From positions 48,295-112,294 of the forward strand of contig JBBDQU010000085.1 of NCBI GenBank assembly GCA_040905865.1: 64,000 bases of DNA. The letters are read 5' to 3'. The position numbers and the translations under genes were made by a program. Below, piece by piece: positions 2,927 through 63,038 of this stretch. Below the pieces are notes generated by a model. It saw nothing but the letters and a program-made list of their open reading frames with translations. It was not told the origin of the DNA and made no database searches. The stretch's first letter is position 1, and each line of letters starts with the position of its first letter. This stretch comes from Alphaproteobacteria bacterium (lineage in GTDB: Bacteria; Pseudomonadota; Alphaproteobacteria; UBA8366; GCA-2717185).

Positions 2927-5530
2927 ATGAAAACCAGCTTCTCTTCAGAAAAGGTAACCGCGGTACAGCAGGCCTTTGCGGCCTGGACGCTGACCGTGGC
3001 GCGTCATGCCCGCAGCGTTATCGTCATTTGCGGGATTTTGACCGTCGCGGCGGCATGGTTTGCGGCCGGCAACCTCGCCATCGATACCAGTACGACGAAC
3101 ATGATTTCCGCGGAAACCCCGTTTCGGCAGAACGCCATCGCCTATGACCGGGCGTTCCCGCAGTTCAGCGACCTGATCGTCATTGTTGTCGATGCTCCCT
3201 CGTCTGATGCGGCAACCGCGATGGCAAAGGCATTGACCGGCGCGCTGCGCGGGAAAGGCGACCTGTTCAAGGGAATCGAATATCCGGAAGGCGATCCGTT
3301 TTTCAGGCGCGCGGGCCTGCTCTATCTGGACCTGGAATCGTTATCGGCGCTTGCCGACCGGCTGGCGGCAGCCGAACCGTTTCTGGCAACGCTCGCGCAT
3401 CAGCCAAACCTGAACGGGTTATTCGATTTTCTCGGACTCGCCCTGCGCAACGATGGCGCCGCCGGGGGAGCGGAACTGGCCGACCTGTTTCGCCGCGTTG
3501 ACGGCATCGTGGACGCGCATGTCGCGGACCGCCCGGCAATGCTGGCATGGCGCGACCTGATCGACGGCGAACGCAAGGACGGCGCGCGCCAGATCGTCCT
3601 GGCGCGGCCCAGGCTGGAGCATGGCGGGCTTTCCCCCGGTGCGGACGCACTTGCCGCAATCCGGCAAGCGGCCGCGGACCTCCGGGACGACGGGCTGCGG
3701 GACGTCACAGTCAGACTGACCGGATCTGTCGCGATTGCGGACGATGAACTGCGCAGCGTTGCGCTGGGCGGCGAGAAGGCGGGACTGCTGACGCTCGGCC
3801 TCGTGGTCCTGCTGGTGGTGATCGGCTTGCGGACCATCCGTTTGATCGTGCCCGCCATCGCGACCCTCGTTGTCGGGCTCATCTGGACAGCGGCCTTTGC
3901 CGCGCTGGCGGTCGGCCACCTGAACCTCATTTCAATTGCCTTCGCGGTCCTGTTTATCGGGCTCGGCGTCGATTTCAGCATCCATTACTGCCTGTACTAC
4001 CGCGAACGCGCCGCCCGCGACGCTACCGGCGCGCTGGTCGCCACGGGGTGCGGCGTCGGCGGATCGCTGGCGATCGGCGCGCTTTGCGCCGCGGCCGGGT
4101 TTCTGTCCTTCCTGCCGACGGACTACAAGGGCCTCGCCGAACTGGGCCTCATATCGGGGGGCGGCATGGCAATTGCGTTTTTTCTGAACATGACCCTGCT
4201 GCCGGCGATCCTGTCGCTGTTTCCCGGCAAACCGATTGAAACCGCAGCGCCCGGCGTCCCAACGGAACCGTTCACCGGGAAATATCACCGTCCGATACTG
4301 TGGATTGCGGCCGCCTGCGCGATACTGGCCGCCAGCGCCATGCCTTTCGCAAAATTCGACTTCAATCCTATGAACCTGAAGGACCCGACCAGCGAATCGG
4401 TATCCACCTTTCTGGATCTCGCGAATGATCCCCGAAACGGCGTGTACGCGATTGATGTCCTGGTTGCCGGCCTGGACCACGCGGCCCGGGAGGCGGAGCG
4501 GCTGAGCGCGTTGCCCGGCGTCGGGACCGCCGTGACCCTCAACAGCCTTGTTCCGGAGGATCAGGCGGAAAAACTGACCGTCATCGACGACATGGCTTAC
4601 TTTCTGGGTCCGGTGCTGACGGCGCCGGCCGCGGACCAGCCCGCCGCCGGTTCGTTTGCCGAATCCCTGGAAGATTTCAGGCGCACGGCCGCCACGTTCC
4701 TGGCCGGCGATCCCGGCGGGCCGCTTGCCGACGCCGTGGCGCAGCTCGACCGCGCCCTGTCGTCCGTCGACCCGGCCAACGCCGCGCGCCTCCAGGATCT
4801 CGACCGCAGGCTGACAGGATATCTTCCCGGGCTGCTGGACGACCTGCGTCTCGCGCTGGAAGCAGGCCCTGTCTCGGTGGATGACATTCCGCCGCACATC
4901 CGTCGGAACTGGCTCACCAATGACGGCGTTGCGCGGATACAGCTGCAACCCGCAAAGCCTGTTCGATCGAACGACGAATTGCGGCAATTCGCGGCGACCG
5001 TTCTGGCAGCGGCGCCGAATGCCGTTGGAACGCCGGTTACGATTTCCGAGGCGGGCGACGCCGTCGTATCCGCGTTCCGGGAGGCGTCGATTATCGCCTT
5101 TGTGCTGGTTTCCGCGATTCTGATCGTCCTGCTGCGCGGTATCGCACGGTCCTTTCTGGTTCTGCTGCCGCTCTCGCTCGCGGCCGTGCTGACCGGCGGC
5201 ACCTCCGTCGCGCTGAACCTGCCCTTCAATTTTGCCAATATTATCGTCCTGCCGCTGTTGTTCGGTCTTGGCGTCGCCAGCGGCGTTCACATGGTCATGC
5301 GGGAGCAGGCGGCGAACAGGGCAATCGACATCATGCAAACCAGCACGCCGCGTGCCGTGCTGTTCAGCGCATTGACGACAATCGCATCCTTCGGCAGCCT
5401 CGCGCTGTCGGGACATCTTGGCATGACCAGCATGGGCCAGCTCCTGACCATCGCCATCGGCTATACGCTGGTCTGCATGCTGCTCGTCCTGCCCGCCATG
5501 ATGGCCTGGCGCGACCGGCGCAGCCCATAA
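2927..5530 (+). CDS. hpnN: HpnN, hopanoid-associated RND-type transporter
   Basis: 867 aa with two 6-TM bundles separated by large soluble domains (MMPL/RND architecture), located next to hpnM. The ORF track begins at 2720. ATG 2927 (or 2867) removes the overlap with hpnM. Confidence 0.85.
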   Translation: MKTSFSSEKVTAVQQAFAAWTLTVARHARSVIVICGILTVAAAWFAAGNLAIDTSTTNMISAETPFRQNAIAYDRAFPQFSDLIVIVVDAPSSDAATAMAKALTGALRGKGDLFKGIEYPEGDPFFRRAGLLYLDLESLSALADRLAAAEPFLATLAHQPNLNGLFDFLGLALRNDGAAGGAELADLFRRVDGIVDAHVADRPAMLAWRDLIDGERKDGARQIVLARPRLEHGGLSPGADALAAIRQAAADLRDDGLRDVTVRLTGSVAIADDELRSVALGGEKAGLLTLGLVVLLVVIGLRTIRLIVPAIATLVVGLIWTAAFAALAVGHLNLISIAFAVLFIGLGVDFSIHYCLYYRERAARDATGALVATGCGVGGSLAIGALCAAAGFLSFLPTDYKGLAELGLISGGGMAIAFFLNMTLLPAILSLFPGKPIETAAPGVPTEPFTGKYHRPILWIAAACAILAASAMPFAKFDFNPMNLKDPTSESVSTFLDLANDPRNGVYAIDVLVAGLDHAAREAERLSALPGVGTAVTLNSLVPEDQAEKLTVIDDMAYFLGPVLTAPAADQPAAGSFAESLEDFRRTAATFLAGDPGGPLADAVAQLDRALSSVDPANAARLQDLDRRLTGYLPGLLDDLRLALEAGPVSVDDIPPHIRRNWLTNDGVARIQLQPAKPVRSNDELRQFAATVLAAAPNAVGTPVTISEAGDAVVSAFREASIIAFVLVSAILIVLLRGIARSFLVLLPLSLAAVLTGGTSVALNLPFNFANIIVLPLLFGLGVASGVHMVMREQAANRAIDIMQTSTPRAVLFSALTTIASFGSLALSGHLGMTSMGQLLTIAIGYTLVCMLLVLPAMMAWRDRRSP

Positions 5531-5663
5531 GCATCTGTTTTACATGGACGCACAGGAATATCCCGCGTAAAACAGGCCCCGCCCTTCGGATTGCGTGTCA
5601 AAAAGCCGAAATCGGGCCGTTACAGGCCTGAAACGGAACCCCCTGCTCGCGAAGATTTCCGCC

Positions 5664-6407
5664 ATGAAAGCTGTCATGCTTGCCGCCGGAGTCGGCTCAC
5701 GGCTCGAAAAGGAAACCGGTTTTCCCCCGAAGACGCTGCTCCGCTTCGGCGGAAAGACCCTGCTGCAGCGTCACGCCGAAATCCTGAAATACCTGGGATT
5801 CGACGAACTGGTCATGGGCGTCGGCTATCAGGCCGAGCGTATCCGCGCGGAAATCGCGGCCATCGGCGCCGGCGATTTCGTGCGCACCGTGGATTGCCCG
5901 GATCACGCGAAGGGCGCACCGTATACCCTATGGGGTCTGCGGGCGGAATTCACCGGACCGACAGTCTTCATGGACGGCGATGTCCTGTACGACCACCGGC
6001 TGATGGCCAGGCTGGTGAATTCGCGCCATCAGACCTGTTTCGCCATGGACCGGAACGTCCGGCCGGGCGACGATCCTGTGAAGATATGCTTCAAGGACGG
6101 CCGGATAGTGGATTTTCACAAGATGCCGACCGCCCCTTTCGATACGTTTCACGAATGGATCGGCTTTCTGCGCCTGTCCGCGGATATCGCGCGCCGGGTC
6201 GAACCGGCCCTGCGCCCCTATATCGAAGCGGGGCGGACCGATTTCATTTACGAGCAAGCCTTCCGCGACATCCTGTACGCATCGCCCGACGGAACCTTTG
6301 CCACAGAAGACATTACCGGCCTTCCCTGGACTGAAATCGATTTCCCGCATGACCTGGTTTATGCCGAAAAGACCATTTTCCCCCGGCTGGAGCCGCTGCC
6401 CGCATGA
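5664..6407 (+). CDS. Nucleotidyltransferase (LicC/GlmU-N-like NTP-transferase fold)
   Basis: The N-terminal MKAVMLAAGVGSRL is a G-rich NTP-binding loop. The C-terminal ...GLPWTEIDFPHDL resembles LicC-type cytidylyltransferases. The start was chosen at ATG 5664 within ORF 5595. Confidence 0.75.
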   Translation: MKAVMLAAGVGSRLEKETGFPPKTLLRFGGKTLLQRHAEILKYLGFDELVMGVGYQAERIRAEIAAIGAGDFVRTVDCPDHAKGAPYTLWGLRAEFTGPTVFMDGDVLYDHRLMARLVNSRHQTCFAMDRNVRPGDDPVKICFKDGRIVDFHKMPTAPFDTFHEWIGFLRLSADIARRVEPALRPYIEAGRTDFIYEQAFRDILYASPDGTFATEDITGLPWTEIDFPHDLVYAEKTIFPRLEPLPA

Positions 6408-6519
6408 CGGTCCGGCGCAGGATATCGCCCCCGTGCGATCAGCGCCTTGCCCGCCCGGCAGCGGATTTATGGCGCAACGCCATTGGCTGGTTCACGGCGA
6501 ATGATTTTCCGGTGCGCCG

Positions 6520-7500
6520 ATGAAGTGGTCCATCCTCATCGGCCTGATCCTCGGCGGCGGGCTGTTTACCGCCTTGATCGCCTGGTATGGCGCGGCGGAT
6601 ATCCTGGCCGGCGCCATCGCCATCGGCTGGGGCATTCTGCTGGTTGTCCTGTTCCGCATCGCGTTGCTCGTCATCGACATGCTTTCCTGGCATGTCCTGA
6701 TTCCCCGGGAGAAGCGGATTTCCGTCGGCCGTCTTTTCTGGATCCGCTGGATTGCCGATTCCGTGAATACCCTGCTGCCTGTCGCGCGGATCGGGGGAGA
6801 ATTCCTGCGCGCGTTCCTGTTGCACCGCCGGGGCATCGAGGGGCCGATTGCCGGCGCAAGCGTCATGGTAGACCTTACCGCCGGAATTCTGGCCCAGTTC
6901 ATTTTCTCCGTTGTCGGCGTCATGGCCTTCGCGGCCATCGTCGGGGGCGGCCAGGACACGATTGTAAATCTTGCAATCGGACTCTCCCTGTTCGGCGCCG
7001 GGCTGGTCGGGTTTTACGTTGTGCAGCAAACCGGCCCGTTTTTGCGGCTCGCCAGGCTGATGGAACGTTTTGCCAGCGTTAATGCCTGGACATCGATCAC
7101 CGGCGGAGCCGCCGCACTGGATGCCGCGGTCATCGCGATGTACCGGCAGCGGCGCGCCACCACCCTGTGCTGCTTCTGGCGCATTATCGGCTGGGTCGCG
7201 GGAACCGGCGAGGTCTGGCTGATCCTGATGTTTCTGGGCCACCCGGTTACCCTGACGGAAGCCTTCGTGCTGGAAAGCCTCAGCCAGGCGGCCCGCAGCG
7301 CCGGGTTCATGATCCCCGGCGGCCTGGGGATTCAGGAAGGCGGACTTATCCTGATCGGAGGCTTCATTGGCCTGACGCCGGAACTGGCGCTCACGCTTTC
7401 ACTGATCAAGCGCGGGCGCGAATTGATTATCGGGATACCCGGCCTGGTCGCCTGGCAGATAGACGAGGGGCGCAACCTGTGGCGGCGACGGCATTCGTGA
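6520..7500 (+). CDS. hpnL: HpnL, UPF0104/LPG-synthase-TM (flippase-like) membrane protein
   Basis: Polytopic membrane protein with the ...NTLLPVARIGGEFLRAFLL... motif typical of UPF0104, in hopanoid cluster context. Confidence 0.75.
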   Translation: MKWSILIGLILGGGLFTALIAWYGAADILAGAIAIGWGILLVVLFRIALLVIDMLSWHVLIPREKRISVGRLFWIRWIADSVNTLLPVARIGGEFLRAFLLHRRGIEGPIAGASVMVDLTAGILAQFIFSVVGVMAFAAIVGGGQDTIVNLAIGLSLFGAGLVGFYVVQQTGPFLRLARLMERFASVNAWTSITGGAAALDAAVIAMYRQRRATTLCCFWRIIGWVAGTGEVWLILMFLGHPVTLTEAFVLESLSQAARSAGFMIPGGLGIQEGGLILIGGFIGLTPELALTLSLIKRGRELIIGIPGLVAWQIDEGRNLWRRRHS

Positions 7501-7693
7501 ACCATTATGGCGTCATTCGCAAGGCACGGAGGAGCCCGCGGCCTGCCGTTTGGCGGCTGGACCCTGTCGCGGTACCTGCGCGACAGGATTTCGGCAAAAC
7601 AGCTTGTAACCGTGCCTCCTTGAGGCATATCTCACTTCATGTTAGTTAGCGCCATGGTGAGAATTTCATGCCAGCGCATCGGAAAGGTAGGCG

Positions 7694-8638
7694 ATGAGTA
7701 AAAAGCCCTTAAAGGTCCTGCTGGCCCAGCCGAGGGGCTTTTGCGCCGGGGTCGTGCGCGCCGTCGATATTGTCGAGCGCGCGCTCGAAAAGTTCGGCAA
7801 GCCCGTCTATGTCCGGCATGAAATCGTTCACAACAAACATGTCGTCGAGACCCTGAAAAGCAAGGGCGCCATCTTCGTCGAGGAAGTCGACGAAATTCCG
7901 GAAGGCGCCGTCACGATCTTCAGCGCCCACGGCGTATCGCAGAAGGTCGAGGGCGACGCCGTCGGGCGGTTCCTGGAGGTCATCGACGCGACATGCCCCC
8001 TGGTCAGCAAGGTTCACAAGGAAGCCCAGCGTTATTCGCGCAGCGGATACGAAATCGTGCTTATCGGCCATCGCGGCCACCCCGAAGTCGAAGGCACGAT
8101 GGGCCAGGTACCGGGAACGGTGCATCTGGTCAGCCGGAAAGAGGATGTGGCGGGCCTCAAGACAACCGATTCGGGCAAACTCGCCTACGTCACCCAGACA
8201 ACGCTGAGCGTGGATGACACAAGGGATATCATCACCGCCCTGCGGACGCGCTTTCCGAAGATCGTCGGGCCGGATGTGAAGGATATCTGTTACGCGACGC
8301 AGAACCGCCAGAGCGTCGTCCGCGAAATGGTCCGGCACGCCGATGTCATCCTGGTCATCGGAGCGGATTACAGTTCAAATTCCAACCGGCTGCGCGAAAT
8401 CGGCCAGGAATCCGGCGTCCCGAGCTACCTGTTACCCGACGCATCGGCGCTCGACCCCGCTTGGCTCGAGAACGTCGGGACGGTCGGCATCACGGCCGGC
8501 GCATCGGCGCCCGAGGAACTGGTGCAGGGACTCATCCAGCGACTCGGCGACAGCTTCGAGGTCGATGTCCAGAACCTCGAAACCGTCAAGGAAAACATCC
8601 ACTTCAAATTGCCGCGCGAACTGATGGCAACCGCTTAA
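7694..8638 (+). CDS. ispH: 4-hydroxy-3-methylbut-2-enyl diphosphate reductase
   Basis: [15 protein letters not shown]..., HEIVHN, the conserved Cys trio context and full-length collinearity with IspH/LytB. Confidence 0.95.
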
Positions 8639-8667
8639 TCTCCGTACAAACCCCAACAGGAAAAACT

Positions 8668-9816
8668 GTGGCAGTACCTCTCATTCAGCAATTGCGCGTC
8701 GGCGCCTATGTTGTGAAACAGCGGATCAAGGGCGTCAAAAAATATCCACTGGTCCTGATGCTGGAGCCCCTGTTCCGATGCAATCTCGCCTGTCCCGGCT
8801 GTGGCAAGATCGACTATCCCGACGATATCCTGAACCGCCGGCTGAGCGTGGATGAATGTATAGAAGCCGTTGAGGAATGCGGCGCCCCGATCGTGTCGAT
8901 ACCCGGCGGCGAACCGCTGATCCACAAGGAAATCAAGGAAATCGTCGATGCGCTGATTGCGCGCAAGAAATTCATCTATCTGTGCACGAATGCGCTGCTG
9001 CTTGAAAAGAAGCTGCACCTCTTCAAGCCGAGCCCCTATCTGACGTTCTCCATCCATCTGGACGGGCTGGAAGCGGATCACGACCGGGCCGTCGACCGGA
9101 AGGGCGTCTTCCAGATCGCGACCCGGGCTATCGTAAAGGCGCGGGATGCCGGGTTCCGGGTCAATGTGAACTGCACCCTGTTCGACGGGGCCCAGGCGGA
9201 AGATGTCGCCGCCTTTTTCGACTACGGCATGTCGCTCGGCGTCGAGGGGATAACGGTTTCGCCGGGCTATGCCTATGAACGCGCGCCCGACCAGACGCAT
9301 TTCCTGTCGCGGCAGAAAACCAAACAGTTGTTCCGTAATGTGTTCAGGCTTGGGAAGGGACGGAACTGGCGTTTCAGCCAGTCGACCCTTTTCCTCGACT
9401 TTCTTGCCGGAAATCAGGAATACCAGTGCACCCCCTGGGGCAATCCGACCCGTAACGTCTTCGGGTGGCAACGCCCGTGTTATCTGTTGGGCGAGGGATA
9501 CGCCCCCAGCTACAAGGCCCTGATGGCGGAAACCGACTGGGAGTCCTACGGGACCGGCAAATACGAAAAATGCGCCGAGTGCATGGTGCATTGCGGATAT
9601 GAAGCCACGGCCGTGATGGACACGATTGCCCACCCGATGAAAGCGCTGAAAACATTCATAAAGGGCCCGGAACTGGACGGCCCGATGGCGCCGGAAATCT
9701 CGCTCGAAAACCAGCGGCCGGCCGAATATATCTTCGAATCGAATGTGCAGAAGACGCTGACCCAGTTGCACGCTGAAGCGGAAGAACGGGCGCGGGGGCG
9801 CAGCGACGCGGCCTGA
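8668..9816 (+). CDS. hpnH: Adenosylhopane synthase HpnH (radical SAM)
   Basis: Radical-SAM CNLACPGC motif after the conserved N-terminus VAVPLIQQLRVGAYVVKQ. GTG start at 8668, in frame within ORF 8461. 382 aa. Confidence 0.9.
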   Translation: MAVPLIQQLRVGAYVVKQRIKGVKKYPLVLMLEPLFRCNLACPGCGKIDYPDDILNRRLSVDECIEAVEECGAPIVSIPGGEPLIHKEIKEIVDALIARKKFIYLCTNALLLEKKLHLFKPSPYLTFSIHLDGLEADHDRAVDRKGVFQIATRAIVKARDAGFRVNVNCTLFDGAQAEDVAAFFDYGMSLGVEGITVSPGYAYERAPDQTHFLSRQKTKQLFRNVFRLGKGRNWRFSQSTLFLDFLAGNQEYQCTPWGNPTRNVFGWQRPCYLLGEGYAPSYKALMAETDWESYGTGKYEKCAECMVHCGYEATAVMDTIAHPMKALKTFIKGPELDGPMAPEISLENQRPAEYIFESNVQKTLTQLHAEAEERARGRSDAA

Positions 9817-9826
9817 CCGGATCTGG

Positions 9827-10525
9827 TCAGTCGCTGCCTGTCTCTCTGAACAGGACGCGCGCCGCAACGGCAAGGCTGCGCATTGCCGCCGCACTGTCGC
9901 CCGCCAGCCGGATGAGCCCCGGAAGGTCACTTGGGCGAAACAGCAGGCGCCCCAATACGGCAAACGGACGGCGGCGCCCGTCGGATCCCATGCCCGCCAG
10001 AGCGGCGGCAGGGACGGCCCGCATCGACGGATCGGCGACCGCGCGGATTACCAGTATCGGAATACCCAGTTCGGCCGCCGCCGAAGCCGTACCGTGGCTT
10101 TCCATATCGACGGCGAGAGCGCCGGACCGTAATCTAAGCGCCGCCTTCGCCGCGACCGAAACAGCAGGCGCATCGACGCCCGCGACGCCGCCGATCCGGA
10201 CGCGGCATTCCCGCTGCAGCCCGGCCGCGATGGATTGCGCCCAGGGCCCCGTCATGTCCAATGGCGGTCCTGAATTGCGCCAGACCGTCGCGCCGATCAC
10301 GATATCGCCCGGCAGCAGCGACGGATCGAGACCGCCCGCAAGCCCGAAACTGACCAGCGCTCTTGCGCCCGCCGCCACCTGTTGCCGCGCGAGACCGGCC
10401 GCGCGTTCGGCGCTGCCGCCGGCCACGCCGATAATCGGCATGTCGGCATCCTGCAAGCCGCGACTGGCGGTCCTGATGCGGGCAGCCTCCATCGACAGCC
10501 CCGTCACGATCCCGAGGCGGCTCAC
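9827..10525 (-). CDS. hpnG: HpnG, hopanoid-associated nucleosidase/phosphorylase (PNP/UDP family)
   Basis: PNP_UDP-like sequence (GIVTGL..EA.., SFGLAGGLDP, AVDMES) lies directly after shc with a GTGA start/stop overlap at 10522-10525. Confidence 0.85.
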   Translation of the reverse strand: MSRLGIVTGLSMEAARIRTASRGLQDADMPIIGVAGGSAERAAGLARQQVAAGARALVSFGLAGGLDPSLLPGDIVIGATVWRNSGPPLDMTGPWAQSIAAGLQRECRVRIGGVAGVDAPAVSVAAKAALRLRSGALAVDMESHGTASAAAELGIPILVIRAVADPSMRAVPAAALAGMGSDGRRRPFAVLGRLLFRPSDLPGLIRLAGDSAAAMRSLAVAARVLFRETGSD

Positions 10526-12501
10526 ATTCCGTATGGCGCCGACTTGGCGTTACCGGCTTTCAGGTTGCGGTAACGGGCCAGCGCCCAAAGCGGGAAATAG
10601 GCGCTGTAGCCGTGGTAGCGCAGATAAAAGACCCGCGGGAAGCCGACCGCCGTGTACCAGGGCTCCACCCAGCGGACCCCGTCGCGTTCCGCCGACAGGA
10701 GATATTCGATACCGCGCCGCACGGCGTCCGAGTCGATTTCCCCCGCGGCCATCAGCGCCAGCAGGGCCCAGGCCGTTTGCGACGGTGTGCTCGCCTTCAC
10801 CTTCGTCCGTGTCTCGGCCCAGTATGTCGCGCCATCCTCACCCCAGCCGCCATCGTCCCGCTGGCGGCTTTCAAGCCACGCCACCGCCTTTCGGATATGA
10901 GGCGCCGACATGTCTTCATTCGCCGCATTGAAGGCGCCGAGAACCGACCAGGTGCCGTAGATATAATTCGTGCCCCAGCGTCCGAACCACGAACCGTCCG
11001 GCTGCTGCATATCCCGCAGATAGGCGAGCCCCCGTGCCACAGACGCCTTGCCGGATTCACGCCCCATCTGCGCCAGCATGCTGACGCACCGTGCGGTTAC
11101 ATCCTCGGTCGGCGGGTCGAGCAGCGCGCCATGGTCGGCAAAGGGGATATAATTGAGATAGGTATAGGTGTTTTCCGCATCGAACGACCCCCAGCCGCCG
11201 TTCCTGCACTGCATGCCGACAATCCATTCTTCGGCGCGGTCCAGCGTCGACTCGAATGCCGGGTCGTCCATCCGGTCCAGCGCCATGGCCACCACGGCGG
11301 AATCGTCCACATCCGGATAGTAGTCGTTGTTATACTGGAAGGACCAGCCACCCGGCCGGACGCCCGGACGCCCGTCCGCCCAGTCGCCCCTGACGTCCAG
11401 CACCTGGCGATCCGCCAGCCAGTGCGCCGCCTTTTGCAGCGCATCGCTATCCCGCGATACGCCCGCTTCCATCATCGCCAGCGAGGCGAGGCCGGTATCC
11501 CAGACCGGCGACATGCAGGGCTGGCAATACCCCCGGTCTTCCTCCAGGACGAGCAACCGCCGGATAGCGGTTTTCGCCAGAACGACATCCGGATGATCCT
11601 TGGGAAACCCCAGCCGGTCGAACGCCATGACCGTATTGGCCATCGCAGGAAAAATGCCGCCCAAACCGTCTTCCCCGTTCAGGCGTTCGCGAACGAATGC
11701 CTCCGCCTTTCGGAAGGCGCGTTGCCGCCGGTTCTTCGGATATTGCCGTTCGATAATCCGCAGCACCTTGTCCAGGCCGATCATGATAGCACCCCAGGGG
11801 GACCCGGTCGCATTGCGCATGTAATGCTTGACGTCGTCGGACGGGGTGACGAACAGCTCCTCGATATGCACGCCGCGCGGATTGCGGGCGCGCGGCTTCA
11901 GCGCCATCAGGATCAGCAACGGCACCAGCACCGTGCGCGACCAGTACGATATCTTGGAGATATGGAAGGGAAACCAGCGCGGCAGCAACATGATTTCAAT
12001 CGGCATGACCGGAACCGCCCGCCAGGGAAGCTGATCGAAAAGCGCCAGCGCTATGCGCGTAAACACATTACAGGTTTCGGCCCCGCCATGGGCGAGAATT
12101 GCGTCGCGCGCGCGCGTCATATGCGGTTCTTCGGGACGGTCGCCAAACAGCTTCAGCGCGTAATAGGCCTTTACGCTGGCGCTGATATCGAAATCGCCCT
12201 GGTAAAACAGCGACCAGCCGCCATGCAATTCCTGCTTGTCCCGCAGATAGACCGCGAGCTTGTTCTCTATTTCCGGGTCGATTTCGTCGAGAAAATGCTC
12301 CAGCAGAATATACTCGGCCGGGATCGTCACATCGGCTTCGAGTTCGAACACCCAGTGGCCATCGCCGTTCTGGAGCGCGGCCAGAGCGTTGCCGGCATCT
12401 TCGACGGTCGCATCTACTTTATTCAGAAGTCCATCGTCATGCTGCTGTGGAACGCCGCCGACATATGCGTCGGCCCCTCCAACTTCCCTGGCTGCATTCA
12501 T
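10522..12501 (-). CDS. shc: Squalene-hopene cyclase
   Basis: Repeated QW motifs (..Q..DGGWG..) are present, together with the DVDDSAV (DxDD-type) catalytic motif, read on the minus strand around nt 11.3 kb. 659 aa from ATG 12501. The longer ORF running to 12876 would overlap hpnE. Confidence 0.95.
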   Translation of the reverse strand: MNAAREVGGADAYVGGVPQQHDDGLLNKVDATVEDAGNALAALQNGDGHWVFELEADVTIPAEYILLEHFLDEIDPEIENKLAVYLRDKQELHGGWSLFYQGDFDISASVKAYYALKLFGDRPEEPHMTRARDAILAHGGAETCNVFTRIALALFDQLPWRAVPVMPIEIMLLPRWFPFHISKISYWSRTVLVPLLILMALKPRARNPRGVHIEELFVTPSDDVKHYMRNATGSPWGAIMIGLDKVLRIIERQYPKNRRQRAFRKAEAFVRERLNGEDGLGGIFPAMANTVMAFDRLGFPKDHPDVVLAKTAIRRLLVLEEDRGYCQPCMSPVWDTGLASLAMMEAGVSRDSDALQKAAHWLADRQVLDVRGDWADGRPGVRPGGWSFQYNNDYYPDVDDSAVVAMALDRMDDPAFESTLDRAEEWIVGMQCRNGGWGSFDAENTYTYLNYIPFADHGALLDPPTEDVTARCVSMLAQMGRESGKASVARGLAYLRDMQQPDGSWFGRWGTNYIYGTWSVLGAFNAANEDMSAPHIRKAVAWLESRQRDDGGWGEDGATYWAETRTKVKASTPSQTAWALLALMAAGEIDSDAVRRGIEYLLSAERDGVRWVEPWYTAVGFPRVFYLRYHGYSAYFPLWALARYRNLKAGNAKSAPYGM

Positions 12502-58912: not shown

Positions 58913-59854
58913 ATGAGCCTATCCGTCGCCATTCAGATGGACCCGGTCGAGAAAATCGACATCAACGGGGACAGCAGCTTCGTGCTGGGGCTCGAGGCGC
59001 AGAAGCGCGGCCATGACCTGTACTATTACCTGCCCAGCGACCTGACCTTCCGCGACGGCAGGGTCACGGCGCGCGGCCAGCGGCTGACCCTGCGCCGCGA
59101 ATCCGGCAACCATTTCGAGACCGGGCCCCGCGTCCTGATGGACCTGTCGACGATGGACGTCATCCTCATGCGCCAGGACCCGCCCTTCGACATGGCCTAC
59201 ATCACCGCCACCCATGTGCTGGAGCATATCCACCCCAAAACGCTGGTCGTGAACGACCCGACCCATGTGCGCAACGCGCCGGAAAAGATTTTCGTGACCC
59301 GCTTTCCGGAGCTGATGCCGCCGACGCTGATCACGTCGAGCCGCGAGGAAATCCTGGCGTTCCGCGCCGAGCACAAGGACATCATCGTCAAGCCGCTCTA
59401 CGGCAATGGCGGCGCCGGCGTTTTCCATATCACGCCCGGCGACGAAAACCTGGCGTCGCTGCTGGAAGTATTTACCGGCATCTACCGCGAACCGATCATC
59501 GTGCAGCGCTACCTGCCGGAAGTCCGCGCCGGCGACAAGCGGATCATCCTGATCGACGGCAAGGCGATGGGCGCGACAAACCGCATTCCGCCGGTCGGGG
59601 AGGCGCGGTCCAACATGCATGTGGGCGGCAGGCCGGCGCCGACCACGCTGACCCGGCGGGAAGAGGAAATCTGCGAGGCCATCGGCCCGACCTTGAAGGA
59701 AAACGGGCTGATCTTCGTCGGGATCGATGTGATCGGGGATTACCTGACGGAAATCAACGTCACCTCCCCGACGGGGCTGCAGGAAGTCAATCGCTTCAAC
59801 AATGTCTGCCTGGAGGCGGATATCTGGAACGCGATCGAGGCGCGCCTGCCCTGA
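58913..59854 (+). CDS. gshB: Glutathione synthase
   Basis: ..[10 protein letters not shown]...T..LE.., ..VKPL.G.GG.G.F.., ..R.ILIDG.. and ..EINVTSPTG.. (ATP-grasp GshB). Confidence 0.95.
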
Positions 59855-59861
59855 CCCGCTA

Positions 59862-59873
59862 CCGGGAATTGTG
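59862..59873. repeat. Left copy of 12-bp imperfect direct repeat flanking the islet (CCGGGAATTGTG)
   Basis: 11/12 identical to CCGGAAATTGTG at 61929-61940. It lies 8 nt after the gshB stop. Confidence 0.4.
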
Positions 59874-59944
59874 CGGCATTATATATCGAGCACATAACCG
59901 AACTGATTGCCGATGCCGAAGCCCTGGAAGCGGCTCTCCGCGTC

Positions 59945-60313
59945 ATGGACTCCGACATGACGATACCGCACAACAGCAAGGTGAAGTTCCAGAACAAGCT
60001 GGACTCGCACAAACACGAAATGTCCCGGTACATCGTAAGCTTCATGCGCCAGCAGGCCGGGACTGCAACGTCTCAGGATATCGCCCTCGCCTTCATGGCG
60101 GATCGCGGCCAGAGCCGGAACAACCCGAAAGAAGTCGCGGATATGAAAAAGCGGGTAGGCTATGCCCTTACGCGGCTGGGCCGGAAAGGGCTGATCCGGC
60201 AGGCGTCAAAGGATTCGGGCGGGTTCTGGAATTGGGGGGGGTTGTGCGTTAATGGATCCAATTCCAGCCTAACGAGTAAATGCCTACCCCAAGCCCAACA
60301 ACGCCTATTATAA
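59945..60313 (+). CDS. Small winged-helix-like ORF, probably a gene remnant
   Basis: ..TSQDIALAFMADRG...KKRVGYALTRLGRKGLIRQ resembles a wHTH. The frame is open, without a start codon, back to the gshB stop. The 3' end reads across a G8 tract (60234-60241) into low-GC DNA antisense to the next gene. Confidence 0.3.
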   Translation: MDSDMTIPHNSKVKFQNKLDSHKHEMSRYIVSFMRQQAGTATSQDIALAFMADRGQSRNNPKEVADMKKRVGYALTRLGRKGLIRQASKDSGGFWNWGGLCVNGSNSSLTSKCLPQAQQRLL

Positions 60314-60881
60314 TTCCACCCCATCCAAAGATGTCATTTCGTCTCGTGGTGGATCGTTGTTGGCCTGCAAGTTTCTCCATAAGGGGTTCTGACGACTTAA
60401 ATTTTTTATATAATTCGAGAATTTTCGGGAACTCGCCCTGCTCTATCGAGTGGTAGATTTTATCCCTATTCTCGCGGTCAGACCGGGAGTCCGCGATAAG
60501 ATCAGATAATTTAGTAAGCTTTAGGAGCAATTCAGGAAAATCTGGAAATGCCTTTAGAACAGGATCATATCCGAGATACTCAGGAACTGAATTGATTGTA
60601 ATGATGAACCCTGCGGAAGCAGCGTCTATCGCATCATGCCGCGCACGGAGGCAATTAAAATACGCATCATTCAAAAGCTTGCAAATATCTTCCTGTTCGC
60701 CGCCCGTGGCGAGCTTCTCAAGGGCCTCTATTAATCGCCGCCCCGCGTACCGTAGTTCTAAAATACTTGGCTGGATTGGCTCATTAATCGCCAATTCTGC
60801 GTCTTTTATGGTTCGTTCAGCTTGATTCCATTCCGCACGGATAGACGCAAGAATGTCTGCGTATGGGCTCAGGTCGGGCAT
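60249..60881 (-). CDS. Hypothetical protein with helical N-domain and C-terminal TM helix (low-GC cassette gene 2)
   Basis: 210 aa from ATG 60881. The C-terminal IFGWGGIIIGVVGLGVGIYSLGWNW is a predicted TM anchor. Local G+C is about 37-45% by hand count of sample lines. No motif recognised. Confidence 0.6.
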   Translation of the reverse strand: MPDLSPYADILASIRAEWNQAERTIKDAELAINEPIQPSILELRYAGRRLIEALEKLATGGEQEDICKLLNDAYFNCLRARHDAIDAASAGFIITINSVPEYLGYDPVLKAFPDFPELLLKLTKLSDLIADSRSDRENRDKIYHSIEQGEFPKILELYKKFKSSEPLMEKLAGQQRSTTRRNDIFGWGGIIIGVVGLGVGIYSLGWNWIH

Positions 60882-60899
60882 AATGGGCGGCCCCAAAAA

Positions 60900-61127
60900 T
60901 TACTTCGCCGCCCACTTAGTCAATTCAGCCAAACTCCTCCGACTTTTCTTATTTAAACGATCAAGACCCTCTTTCGTGAGCATCTTTCCATTTTGAGTTG
61001 ATACATTTCCGCGCGAAAAACGAGAAAACACCAACCTAAAGATACTCTCCTTAAATTTCCTGTACCCTTCAACGTCGGGCTGCTCTTGCTTTTTTCTAGG
61101 ATTCGTCAACATCATAGCTGCAACCAT
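60900..61127 (-). CDS. Small basic hypothetical protein (low-GC cassette gene 1)
   Basis: 75 aa from ATG 61127, preceded by GGAAGG 7 nt upstream. Lys/Arg-rich. Its stop lies 18 nt before the ATG of the next gene. The ORF track extends to the TTG at 61193. Confidence 0.5.
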   Translation of the reverse strand: MVAAMMLTNPRKKQEQPDVEGYRKFKESIFRLVFSRFSRGNVSTQNGKMLTKEGLDRLNKKSRRSLAELTKWAAK

Positions 61128-61394
61128 AATTTCGCCTTCCCCCAAGCGGGCAACAAAGCCGCGCCGCATAACCCAAGCAAACGCGTGAGTCAAGTAATAT
61201 ATGATTCAACCTTAGCCATTACAGCCCTTGACAAGAGCGCCGTCAATGCCGCTAGCGGGGATAATGTGATTAAAGCGATCTATTTTTTATTATACACAAC
61301 ATATTGTTGCAAATATGTCACGATCCAAGCGTTTGACTAAGGAATAGCGGTATCATGTACTAAGTTTGCTGAGATACATCTAGATGTAGTTGGT

Positions 61395-61847
61395 CTAGTG
61401 ATTCGGTTTCCAGCCATGTTGCCAGTACCCCTTCCAGTCCCGCGAAACCGGATGCGCCAGCGCGGCGGCAACGGCCAGCCCGTACTGCTCGCCATTCGAT
61501 ACCCGGCGATGATCTTCGCGCCACGCCATTTCGTAGGCGTACTGTTGCAGGTACTTGCCAAAAATATGGTGATGCGTGCCGACTTCGGCGCGGCGCAGGC
61601 GGGAGAAATAGCTTTCGGCCTGGTTGGTACAGGCGTCTTCGTCCTTGAACGGGACACTGTGGTTGACGCGGTGCATGGCGTACCGGGCGTGCAGGTCATC
61701 CCAGCTTGATGCTTCGTCCGCATAGACCGTGCTGCCGGGCTCTACACGCTGCTGGATTGTGGCCAGTGACGCTGCCTCGCTCTTGAACACGAAAGGCAGT
61801 GTGCGGCCCTGGGGTACGTCCTTGAAAAGTGTCAAAGCTACGAACAT
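61395..61847 (-). pseudogene. IS1595-family (ISXO2-like DDE) transposase, N-terminally truncated remnant
   Basis: ..STVYADEASSWDDLH..Y.MHRVNHS.....DACTNQAESYFSRLRR...G.HHH....YL..YA.E.AWRED.RR..NG matches the C-terminal half of IS1595-type transposases. Only ~150 aa are present, versus about 300 aa or more expected. Confidence 0.75.
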
Positions 61848-61928
61848 AGCGATGACTTACACGCATAAATCAGCGTCCTGCCGCTCTCTGGCAGTCCGCA
61901 GGAAGGCCTGGTGCATTTCCTATGAATG

Positions 61929-61940
61929 CCGGAAATTGTG
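61929..61940. repeat. Right copy of 12-bp imperfect direct repeat flanking the islet (CCGGAAATTGTG)
   Basis: 11/12 identical to 59862-59873. It abuts the stop codon of the 61941-63038 gene. Confidence 0.4.
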
Positions 61941-63038
61941 TCAGATTTCGAAGTCGAACAGGGATTTCTGCAGCATTCCCGCCAGCCCCTGCGTGCCGTA
62001 GCTCAGCGAATCGGTCAGGGACCGCTCGAACAGGATCTGCCGCTTCTGTTCCTCCAGGGAGAAGCGCCGCTCATTGGCGAATTTCTCCGCCTCGATGCGG
62101 GCGGCGACGCCCTTGTTTTCCTCGATCTGGCCCTCGCTGAATTTCAGCGCGACCTCGGCCCGGGTCTGTTGCGATTCGAACATGGTGATATTGAAGCGCA
62201 GGCTGGACAGCGCACTTGAGATATCCTCCAGCGCGGTGGCGCGCAGGGTTTCATCCTCGAAGCCGCCGTAGAAATAGGAATGCAGGAGGCCGACTCCCTT
62301 GCGCTCCAGCGTGCCCTCCAGGATCGGCGCGCCTTCGCCCTCGCGGGTAATCGAGACGGCGCCCGTCGTGCTGTCATAGGCCACGGTATCGGTGCTTTGC
62401 AGCAGGGTGCCGGTGTCGTTCGCGTCCGGCGGCGGAAACTGGATGAGCGTGGAGCCGAAAATATTGGGCATGAAGACATTGCCGCCGCCATCCGTGATCA
62501 CGTAATCGGCGCCCAGGAAATTGCCCTGGTAGGTCGTGGTGGCAAACGATTTCGGCTTGATCGGAACGGACAGGTCGTTGGCGTCGAAGATGTCGCGGAT
62601 GCTGGAACCGATCAGGTTCGTGCCAAGATGGCCCGCGCCCTTGGCCCTCAGATTGTACTGGCCGACCAGCTGGTCGAATTTCTTGGCGAATTCGCGCCGG
62701 GTTTCATCCGTGGTTTCGGGGTTCTGCGCCTTCACGATCAGTTCGCGGGCTTCGAGCAGCAGGGTCTTCATTTCGCCCAGCCGCTCGGTCGTCTTCTCCA
62801 GCGTCTTGACCGCGCGCTTCTGCTTTATCGTCAGCTTGGTGAACCCCTCCACAACGCGGACCGATTCCCGGGCCCGCGCCTCGAGCGCCGACTGGTTGCG
62901 GGATTCCACCGGGCCGGCGGGCCCGCTGTTGCGCCCCGCCAGCGCGACCTGGACCGTCCGCGCGGACGCGGCCTGGCCGATCGACGTGAACAGCGACGCG
63001 TTCAGCTGCTGGATCGAGTTGTTGAAGAAAAAGTCCAT
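61941..63038 (-). CDS. Orphan flagellin/hook-associated-protein-like coiled-coil protein
   Basis: The N-terminal segment ..LGEMKTLLLEARELIVKAQNPETTDETRREFAKKFDQLVGQYN..G..LIG resembles the flagellin ND1 pattern (L.R.REL.VQA.N.T....R.....EF.QL..EI...FNG..LL.G). The C-terminal segment ..ALEDISSAL..LR......Q.R.E......I.EN...ARIE...FA.E...L...QIL resembles the CD1/CD0 pattern. Confidence 0.45.
   Translation of the reverse strand: MDFFFNNSIQQLNASLFTSIGQAASARTVQVALAGRNSGPAGPVESRNQSALEARARESVRVVEGFTKLTIKQKRAVKTLEKTTERLGEMKTLLLEARELIVKAQNPETTDETRREFAKKFDQLVGQYNLRAKGAGHLGTNLIGSSIRDIFDANDLSVPIKPKSFATTTYQGNFLGADYVITDGGGNVFMPNIFGSTLIQFPPPDANDTGTLLQSTDTVAYDSTTGAVSITREGEGAPILEGTLERKGVGLLHSYFYGGFEDETLRATALEDISSALSSLRFNITMFESQQTRAEVALKFSEGQIEENKGVAARIEAEKFANERRFSLEEQKRQILFERSLTDSLSYGTQGLAGMLQKSLFDFEI

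Follow-up and report, generated by a model that had tools for sequence, protein, structure and literature searches.

What kind of unit is a pair of low-G+C genes that stands in the middle of a G+C-rich alphaproteobacterial contig, how did it get there, and what might it do? The question is raised by a 64 000-nucleotide (nt) stretch of contig JBBDQU010000085.1 (the window, to which unprefixed positions refer), in which two co-oriented open reading frames (ORFs) had been singled out from their letters alone as a candidate toxin–antitoxin (TA) or abortive-infection (Abi)-like module. We label these two ORFs gene A and gene B, and a third, convergent ORF of the same element gene C. Here we show that A and B form a strictly paired, self-promoted and horizontally mobile module, which is an optional cargo of insertion sequences (ISs) of the IS1595 family and outlives their transposase. 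That the pair is TA- or Abi-like is plausible but unproven, and we put this forward only tentatively. Few vehicles that move genes not needed for transposition are as small as transporter ISs and, to our knowledge, the cargo carried by members of the IS1595 family has hardly been studied.

Composition and coding status of genes A and B

The minus-strand ORF of A spans 60900–61193 and encodes 97 amino acids (aa) from a TTG codon, or 75 aa from the ATG at 61127; that of B spans 60249–60896 and encodes 215 aa from TTG, or 210 aa from the ATG at 60881. The stop codon of A (TAA, 60900–60902) is separated from the start of B by 18 nt, and the two genes lie in one reading frame. The G+C content is 0.43–0.49 over 60200–61400 and 0.434 in the upstream region (61128–61394), compared with 0.60–0.72 in the flanks. 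At third codon positions (GC3) it is 0.474 in A and 0.455 in B, 0.728 in a neighboring transposase remnant, 0.724 in C, 0.879 in gshB and 0.855 in a flagellin-like gene. These values therefore define three composition tiers: the host genes (0.86–0.88), the transposase plus C (around 0.72), and A–B (0.45–0.47). The original prediction of a low-G+C, co-oriented pair with this spacing, an AT-rich upstream region and a foreign composition is thus borne out, as is its description of the pair as an accessory, horizontally acquired two-gene module.

A and B are both genuine coding genes, with conservation across more than 65 loci, and wherever synonymous divergence (dS) is unsaturated the ratio of nonsynonymous to synonymous substitutions (dN/dS) is 0.15–0.27, which indicates purifying selection, rather than the value of about 1 that had been considered for ORFs not conserved as coding. 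The B protein of the window also occurs, with an identical sequence and a hypothetical-protein annotation, in an alphaproteobacterial metagenome-assembled genome (MAG).

Strict linkage of A and B, and their predicted promoter

A scan of genomes with B as bait returned 49 loci, which together with the window make 50 distinct loci, and an independent scan of metagenome contigs seeded with A returned 16. Almost all of these loci are alphaproteobacterial, the few others of the genome scan being in MAGs of Opitutaceae, Flavobacteriales and Woeseiaceae; cultured carriers include Parvularcula maris, Mesorhizobium sp. LjRoot246 and Ciceribacter selenitireducens. An A profile search revealed that in 50 of the 50 loci of the first set B is directly preceded, on its own strand, by an uninterrupted A-type ORF, and B directly follows A in 16 of the 16 metagenome loci. 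A word-index search with the window A protein alone found no homologues of A, and a query with the alignment succeeded. Candidate A–B fusion proteins were rejected, the longer B homologues being the result of mis-called starts. In all 49 loci of the genome scan the G+C content of the cassette is 5–25 points below that of its flanks.

The pair is also preceded by a conserved signal. At a fixed distance before A, 27 loci have the pattern TTGAC(N), 17 nt, TA(G/T)NNN, followed by a G+C-rich box and a Shine–Dalgarno sequence. In the window the predicted −35 box is TTGACT (61193–61188) and, after a 17-nt spacer, the predicted −10 box is TATGCG (61170–61165); the G+C-rich box, the ribosome-binding site GGGGGAAGG and the ATG of A follow. 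The conservation of this predicted promoter means that the module carries its own. It emerged only by comparison across loci: a single-sequence promoter and terminator scan and an Rfam search of the region gave nothing above chance. Furthermore, in 14 of the 27 loci the −10 box is followed by the CcrM methylation motif GANTC at a distance of 9–17 nt, or of 5 nt in a single locus, compared with 3.8 ± 1.8 in shuffled sequences. The leader in the window has no GANTC, and a GAATC lies just upstream of its −35 box.

The carrier in the window: a decayed IS1595-family element

Read along the minus strand, the element in the window consists of a left terminal inverted repeat (IRL), a truncated transposase gene, A, B, the convergent gene C, and a right terminal inverted repeat (IRR) (Table 1). 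Both of its ends can be aligned with 14 ends from seven related elements, the consensus of which is CGGCATTATGTAGCAAA; the inverted repeat (IR) that begins at 59874 reads CGGCATTATATATCGAGCAC on the plus strand. Outside the IRs is a target duplication, CACAATT(T)C, of 8 bp with one extra T on one side, and the whole lies between two stop codons, that of the flagellin-like gene (61941–61943) and that of gshB (59852–59854). The presence of IRs at both ends and of the flanking duplication therefore delimits the element at 59874–61931 and places its insertion in the spacer between these two genes. An IS remnant had been noted "next door" to the cassette. The remnant is indeed present and matches the IS1595 transposase family PF12762, but the cassette lies between the IRs of the IS and not merely beside it. 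A search for IS1595 passenger genes, which had been proposed as a check, thus found them in A–B itself, the cargo of an IS1595-family transporter IS. From the start of its IRs and from size ranges, the IS may belong to the ISNha5/ISNwi1+ type among the subgroups named in ISfinder.

The match of the transposase remnant to PF12762 (E = 2.2e-28) covers profile positions 50–153 of 153, i.e. a C-terminal fragment, and the remnant has 55% identity to residues 191–324 of the transposase of a related locus, L015. It lacks the first part of the DDE domain and also the Zn-ribbon (PF12760), which is present in the transposases of L015, L046 and L058. Because only residues ~191–324 are left, the copy in the window has an internal deletion and is non-autonomous, and with the Zn-ribbon deleted it is a decayed, not an active, member of the family. 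Gene C probably encodes a winged-helix regulator, with one weak HARE-HTH match. In the window it lacks ~30 N-terminal residues of the coiled-coil segment (GLxxKRAExAG...) that is conserved in its homologues and has a C-terminal extension of ~25 aa overlapping the 3′ end of B, and it may be degenerate. The element came into the spacer by transposition, with the CACAATT(T)C duplication as its trace, and afterwards lost the 5′ half of its transposase gene, so that it can no longer move without transposase provided in trans. A deletion of an adjacent comM gene was suspected first and was rejected once both IRs and the target duplication had been found; comM is not detectable anywhere in the 64-kb window.

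The position of the element invites the idea that A and B are flagellar accessory genes. The neighboring gene (61941–63038, minus strand, 365 aa) has a weak Flagellin_N match (E = 9e-5, 23 bits compared with a cut-off of 26.6) as well as one to FlgL, and the copy in Rhizomicrobium (L004/L027) lies within a flagellar cluster (flgI, the gene for flgJ/rod-binding protein, and FlaEY). However, some 60 other loci have unrelated neighbors, and the target duplication on either side of the element shows that the adjacency in the window was created by the insertion of the IS. A flagellar role is therefore effectively refuted and hardly credible, and we judge the flagellar neighbors in the window and in Rhizomicrobium to be coincidental.

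A variable cargo slot in related elements

In 10 of the 50 loci, including the window, an IS1595 transposase gene adjoins A–B. Four elements in three loci (L040, L046 and L055) have both IRs and exact 8-bp target duplications, and both IRs are also present in L015. Two gene orders occur, tnp→ A→ B→ ←C and C→ A→ B→ ←tnp, and in some copies a gene for a DUF6471 protein or an Xre-type helix-turn-helix (HTH) protein lies upstream of the transposase gene. Minimal forms of the IS, 1.54–1.69 kb long and found on alphaproteobacterial plasmids, contain only the transposase gene and a convergent gene of ~140–155 aa that is homologous to C of the window (E values of 6e-32 to 5e-35 with a hidden Markov model). 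This makes C a core accessory gene of the IS, and the slot of A–B is between the transposase gene and C. In L046 a second element adjoins the first, with perfect 26-nt IRs and an unrelated low-G+C cargo in this slot, composed of small Zn-ribbon-like ORFs (8615–9372); it also has an ORF of 221 aa beyond a DUF6471 gene. Since the slot can hold different ORFs, A–B is an optional cargo and not part of the transposition machinery.

This result bears on the possibility that A–B takes part in mobility or integration, or regulates transposition of its carrier IS. The adjacency of the transposase gene in one-fifth of the 50 loci, the conserved R/H/R/Y residues of B, and the target-derived direct repeats (12, 19 and 65–131 nt) around several transposase-free copies described below would all suit such a role. 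However, the minimal IS transposes without A–B and another copy has a different cargo in the slot, B is predicted to be all-helical and membrane-anchored without any match to a recombinase fold, and around 40 loci have neither transposase gene nor IRs. We consider a role in mobility very unlikely.

The three loci with complete elements all carry insertions within comM (yifB, Mg-chelatase-like), and the insertions of the L040 element and of L046 element 1 are in the same codon region of comM (~aa 309–313). In six other loci (L010, L016, L017, L039, L049 and L057) A–B lies 1–4 kb from an intact comM, and comM adjoins gshB in L040 and L055. Just upstream of A–B in L010, beside a comM fragment, a 146-bp unit resembling a miniature inverted-repeat transposable element (5295–5440) lies between two IS-type inverted repeats (CGGAATTATGTAGC...).

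Copies without a transposase

About 40 loci have no transposase gene and no recognizable IRs. In the neighborhoods that were annotated, A–B appears as a low-G+C islet of ~1.1–1.2 kb amid housekeeping genes. Its neighbors include mnmE/mnmG, pmbA, gshB, comM, hisD and flagellar genes, and only the transposase gene and comM recur. When up to four mismatches in 17 positions were allowed, no IS-type IRs were found around the transposase-free islets, save the 146-bp IR pair in L010. Several of the islets lie between direct repeats of target origin (Table 1); the spacing of these repeats is 1.13–1.19 kb in five of the six repeat-flanked islets (L010 excepted), and neither a recombinase nor an IS end was found at them. 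In L009 the islet is located between mnmG and mnmE. Parvibaculum genomes have an empty site at this position and their own A–B elsewhere, which shows that the islet in L009 is an insertion.

In one MAG (CAWBUA01) the A–B region is present on two contigs (L026 and L029) with 99% identity over 4.25 kb, which reflects either a recent duplication or assembly redundancy.

Table 1. Positions of the features of the window element and of related loci (positions with a locus label are those of that locus)
Feature	Position	Strand	Description
Whole element	59874–61931	-	2058 bp; internally deleted, non-autonomous IS1595-family transporter IS
Left target-site duplication copy	61932–61940	-	CACAATTTC; abuts IRL; one extra T relative to the right copy
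IRL	61910–61931	-	CGGCATTCATAGGAAATGCACC; family consensus CGGCATTATGTAGCAAA with a 1-nt deletion
Transposase remnant	61395–61847	-	150-aa ORF; residues ~191–324 of a ~325-aa IS1595-family DDE transposase
Predicted promoter and leader	61128–61193	-	−35 and −10 boxes, G+C-rich box, ribosome-binding site, up to ATG of A
Gene A	60900–61127	-	75 aa; helix-loop-helix, invariant loop R-G-N-(V/I)-x-x-Q-N-G; proposed neutralizer or partner of B
Gene B	60249–60881	-	210 aa; all-helical predicted cytoplasmic domain and C-terminal tail-anchor helix; proposed effector
Gene C	59945–60313	+	122 aa; accessory protein of the IS; overlaps 3′ end of B by 65 nt
IRR	59874–59895	+ (outside-in)	CGGCATTATATATCGAGCACAT; 13/17 matches to the IR consensus; just outside gene C, as expected
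Right target-site duplication copy	59866–59873	-	CACAATTC; 8 bp; abuts IRR
L046 element 1	3583–7240		Target duplication GGGAACTC
L046 element 2	8136–11696		Target duplication GAAGGCGA
L040 element	3224–8632		Target duplication CTGAATTC
L055 element	5094–8939		Target duplication AGCAGTTC
L063 minimal IS	3330–5020		
L064 minimal IS	3414–4956		
L042 B	5108–6001		Split by IS5-family insertion; genome independent of L043; A intact
L043 B	4634–6001		Split by IS5-family insertion; genome independent of L042; A intact
L036 direct repeats	5478–5608 / 6608–6738		131 nt; 100% identity
L035 direct repeats	5477–5604 / 6638–6765		128 nt; duplicates 3′ end of upstream amidinotransferase-like gene
L013 direct repeats	2579–2643 / 3772–3836		65 nt
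L010 direct repeats	5011–5078 / 7958–8025		68 nt; 2.9 kb apart
L022 direct repeats	4083–4101 / 5241–5259		19 nt
L027 direct repeats	5538–5549 / 6713–6724		12 nt

Conserved features and predicted structures of the proteins

B has 28 relatives in a set of 5.8 billion proteins and 559 representative clusters in a library at 50% identity, none of them with a Pfam domain or an informative name. Its 24 invariant residues are grouped as ELRYAGRR, F.C.RARHDAIDA and SR..RE.RD.IY. The AlphaFold model is all-helical with a confidence (pLDDT) of 95, and the last helix (165–209) holds a Gly-rich hydrophobic tail, in agreement with the all-helical domain and C-terminal Gly-rich membrane helix that had been read from the sequence. 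The predicted tail-anchor helix is encoded at ~60261–60332. A hydrophobic C-terminus is kept in 42 of the 42 loci with an undisrupted B, though the sequence of the tail varies. Because basic residues precede the helix and only ~5 residues follow it, the bundle should face the cytoplasm.

The earlier statement that B has no HEPN Rx4–6H motif is correct as well: the only invariant histidine is H82, within R79-A-R81-H82 in the invariant stretch F-x-C-x-R-A-R-H-D-A-I-D. Protein A had been described as small and Lys/Arg-rich. It is small, but its conserved feature is the loop RGNVSxQNG (RGN(V/I)xxQNG across homologues) rather than its basic residues. The model of A is of moderate confidence (pLDDT 73), with helices at 19–37 and 52–74 on either side of the loop.

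Searches of A, B and C against Pfam, NCBIfam, PADLOC and PHROGs, either as single sequences or with all members of the alignments, gave nothing significant, and sequence-profile searches of the three against the Protein Data Bank (PDB) gave only noise. PADLOC recognized no family among the window proteins and only scattered noise among 27 homologues. Foldseek comparisons of the B model with PDB and BFVD gave a best E value of 0.06 and TM-scores below 0.4, mostly to designed helical bundles, and the A model had no match. Thus, as originally stated, no known domain is recognized in either A or B; the families of A, B and C are uncharacterized and without a Pfam entry, and A and B are also without structural neighbors in PDB and BFVD.

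Decay of B, and a phage copy of A

B is damaged in eight of the 50 genome loci, by truncation or frameshift in L039, L046, L052, L054, L055 and L056 and by an IS5-family insertion in the other two (Table 1). Among the 16 metagenome loci it is damaged in three distinct ones, L071 and L072 having the same truncation. Overall, B is disrupted in ~17% of the loci, and A is uninterrupted in every one of them. In addition, a contig that bears phage portal, Mu-F and capsid genes (L059, region 6514–7310) contains an intact A-type gene (7001–7222) adjoining a GIY-YIG-like ORF; of B, no more than the ~21 initial codons (MTLPKDHIDLLKHIQNEWNQA...) come after A, and then a stop codon. B itself was absent from 2.9 million viral contigs of IMG/VR and from 72 556 plasmids. 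Decay of B with A intact, and a phage gene A beside a stub of B, are what a toxin/antitoxin or effector/neutralizer pair predicts.

The phage contig also raises the more specific possibility that A–B is an anti-phage Abi system, which phages counter with their own copy of A. The intact A and deleted B next to a GIY-YIG-like gene, the membrane-anchored effector architecture predicted for B, and the carriage of the pair as cargo of a mobile element would fit this. However, there is one convincing phage case only. A was not found in 50 697 cultured phage records, there was no PADLOC match, and the loci are outside defense islands. We regard a specifically anti-phage function as unlikely.

A toxin–antitoxin-like pair?

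The TA-like reading accounts for the strict linkage of A and B, their persistence after decay of the IS, the one-sided decay of B, and the occurrence of A alone in a phage. As in type II TA systems, a small gene and a larger one are adjacent and always together, with predicted co-transcription; B has no match to a known toxin superfamily. There is a precedent for such cargo, since Tn3-family transposons have TA pairs among their integral components (Lima-Mendez et al. 2020, PMC7157771), and IS1595 elements of the ISNha5 type carry passenger genes, namely transcription regulators (PMC11891212). The candidate TA/Abi-like module of the original prediction therefore stands in part: an accessory pair, strictly linked, in which the decay of B alone fits.

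Several observations weigh against it. No sequence or fold similarity links A–B to any known toxin, antitoxin or defense protein, and A has no PDB or Pfam match and, in a model of only moderate confidence, no recognizable DNA-binding antitoxin fold. Defense islands, for which the homologue neighborhoods were to be analyzed, were not seen in the annotated neighborhoods, an examination made with no formal enrichment statistic, and housekeeping genes were found instead. The asymmetry of decay is suggestive but statistically weak: given a length ratio of 3:1, ~2.7 disruptions of A are expected in the B-seeded set compared with 0 observed (P ~0.07). The other solo A, in L061, adjoins an IS end and so probably represents a fragment of an IS and not a phage gene. 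Finally, related genomes have syntenic copies (L037/L041 in Parvibaculum, L013/L021 and L035/L036), i.e. A–B is inherited vertically under purifying selection there, as a useful host gene would be.

These syntenic copies suit a different explanation, in which A–B is a non-toxic accessory module that benefits its host. It could be, for example, an enzyme, scaffold or sensor that is tethered to the membrane and has a small subunit for its regulation; it would spread horizontally, at times as a hitch-hiker in an IS, and then be retained for its usefulness. The housekeeping neighborhoods and the lack of similarity to toxins agree with this, the charged cluster that is invariant in B hints at a specific biochemical activity, and the GANTC site kept in position in about half of the promoters suggests cell-cycle control by the host through CcrM. 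However, A–B is patchily distributed, and even old, diverged copies retain the low G+C content of foreign DNA. A useful module also does not readily explain why B is inactivated in so many loci with A always retained, why a phage keeps A and not B, and why no functional partner gene recurs outside the pair. We therefore consider a non-toxic module possible, though rather improbable.

If A–B does work as a TA-like pair for addiction or abortive infection, the following mechanism may be proposed. The C-terminal helix would anchor B at the cytoplasmic side of the inner membrane. B would be a harmful or costly effector and would act by means of the invariant charged cluster in its helical bundle (E22, K26, E29, E42, R44, Y45, R48, R49, D72, R79, R81, H82, D83, D86, R133, R139 and Y143). 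Because the membrane helix is poorly conserved, an enzymatic or ligand-binding activity is suggested rather than a simple pore. A, predicted to be a 70-aa helical hairpin, would bind B by way of the invariant RGNVSxQNG loop and hold it in an inactive state. A pair of this kind may stabilize its carrier DNA, and this would account for the survival of A–B beyond the transposase in most loci; depletion of A, for example during phage infection, could let B kill or arrest the cell.

Implications

The elements compared here define one complete IS architecture, consisting of IRs, a transposase gene, the accessory gene C and a variable cargo slot. In this slot we have identified a two-protein module, represented by 559 clusters and no Pfam family, the evolutionary behavior of which is like that of an addiction or Abi pair. 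If B is a tail-anchored toxin and A its inhibitor, they would constitute a new TA or defense family with new folds, largely confined to Alphaproteobacteria, and this would explain the persistence of the pair after decay of the transposase. In the literature searched we found no description of an A–B cargo operon and no paper with the motifs of A or B or with DUF6471.

A bolder statement, which we consider doubtful, is that A–B represents an unrecognized alphaproteobacterial family of membrane-tethered effectors and their neutralizers, with folds that have no relatives in PDB or BFVD; that it travels both as IS1595 cargo and as bare islets of ~1.1 kb, which would insert with target duplications of 12–131 nt and no detectable recombinase; and that phages would disarm it by keeping A alone. 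If true, it would add a new defense or addiction family and also an undescribed way of inserting small gene islets.

Comparison with known systems

Like HEPN toxins, B is predicted to be a small all-helical bundle with conserved Arg and His. However, it has R-A-R-H and not Rx4–6H, and it has no Pfam or Foldseek match to HEPN proteins. Two-gene Abi systems of the RexAB type resemble A–B in having a small cytoplasmic partner and a membrane-embedded one, in being carried by mobile elements, and in that a phage may carry the small partner. In contrast to their multi-pass channel, B has a single predicted C-terminal anchor and a large conserved cytoplasmic domain, and there is no sequence or structural relationship between the two systems.

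The TA pairs of Tn3-family transposons (PMC7157771) are similar to A–B in that each is a compact operon inside a transposable element, persists with it, and has the small gene first. They differ in the transposon family, and A–B has no homology to any TA superfamily; moreover, the putative toxin B is tail-anchored and the putative antitoxin A is without a recognizable DNA-binding fold.

The vehicle, in contrast to the uncharacterized A, B and C families, is of a known kind. With the IS1595 transporter ISs, presumably those of the ISNha5/ISNwi1+ type, it shares a DDE_Tnp_IS1595 transposase (with a Zn-ribbon in its complete relatives), short IRs starting with CGG..TT, an 8-bp target duplication, and passenger genes inside the IRs, and the copy in the window differs from them in being internally deleted and non-autonomous.

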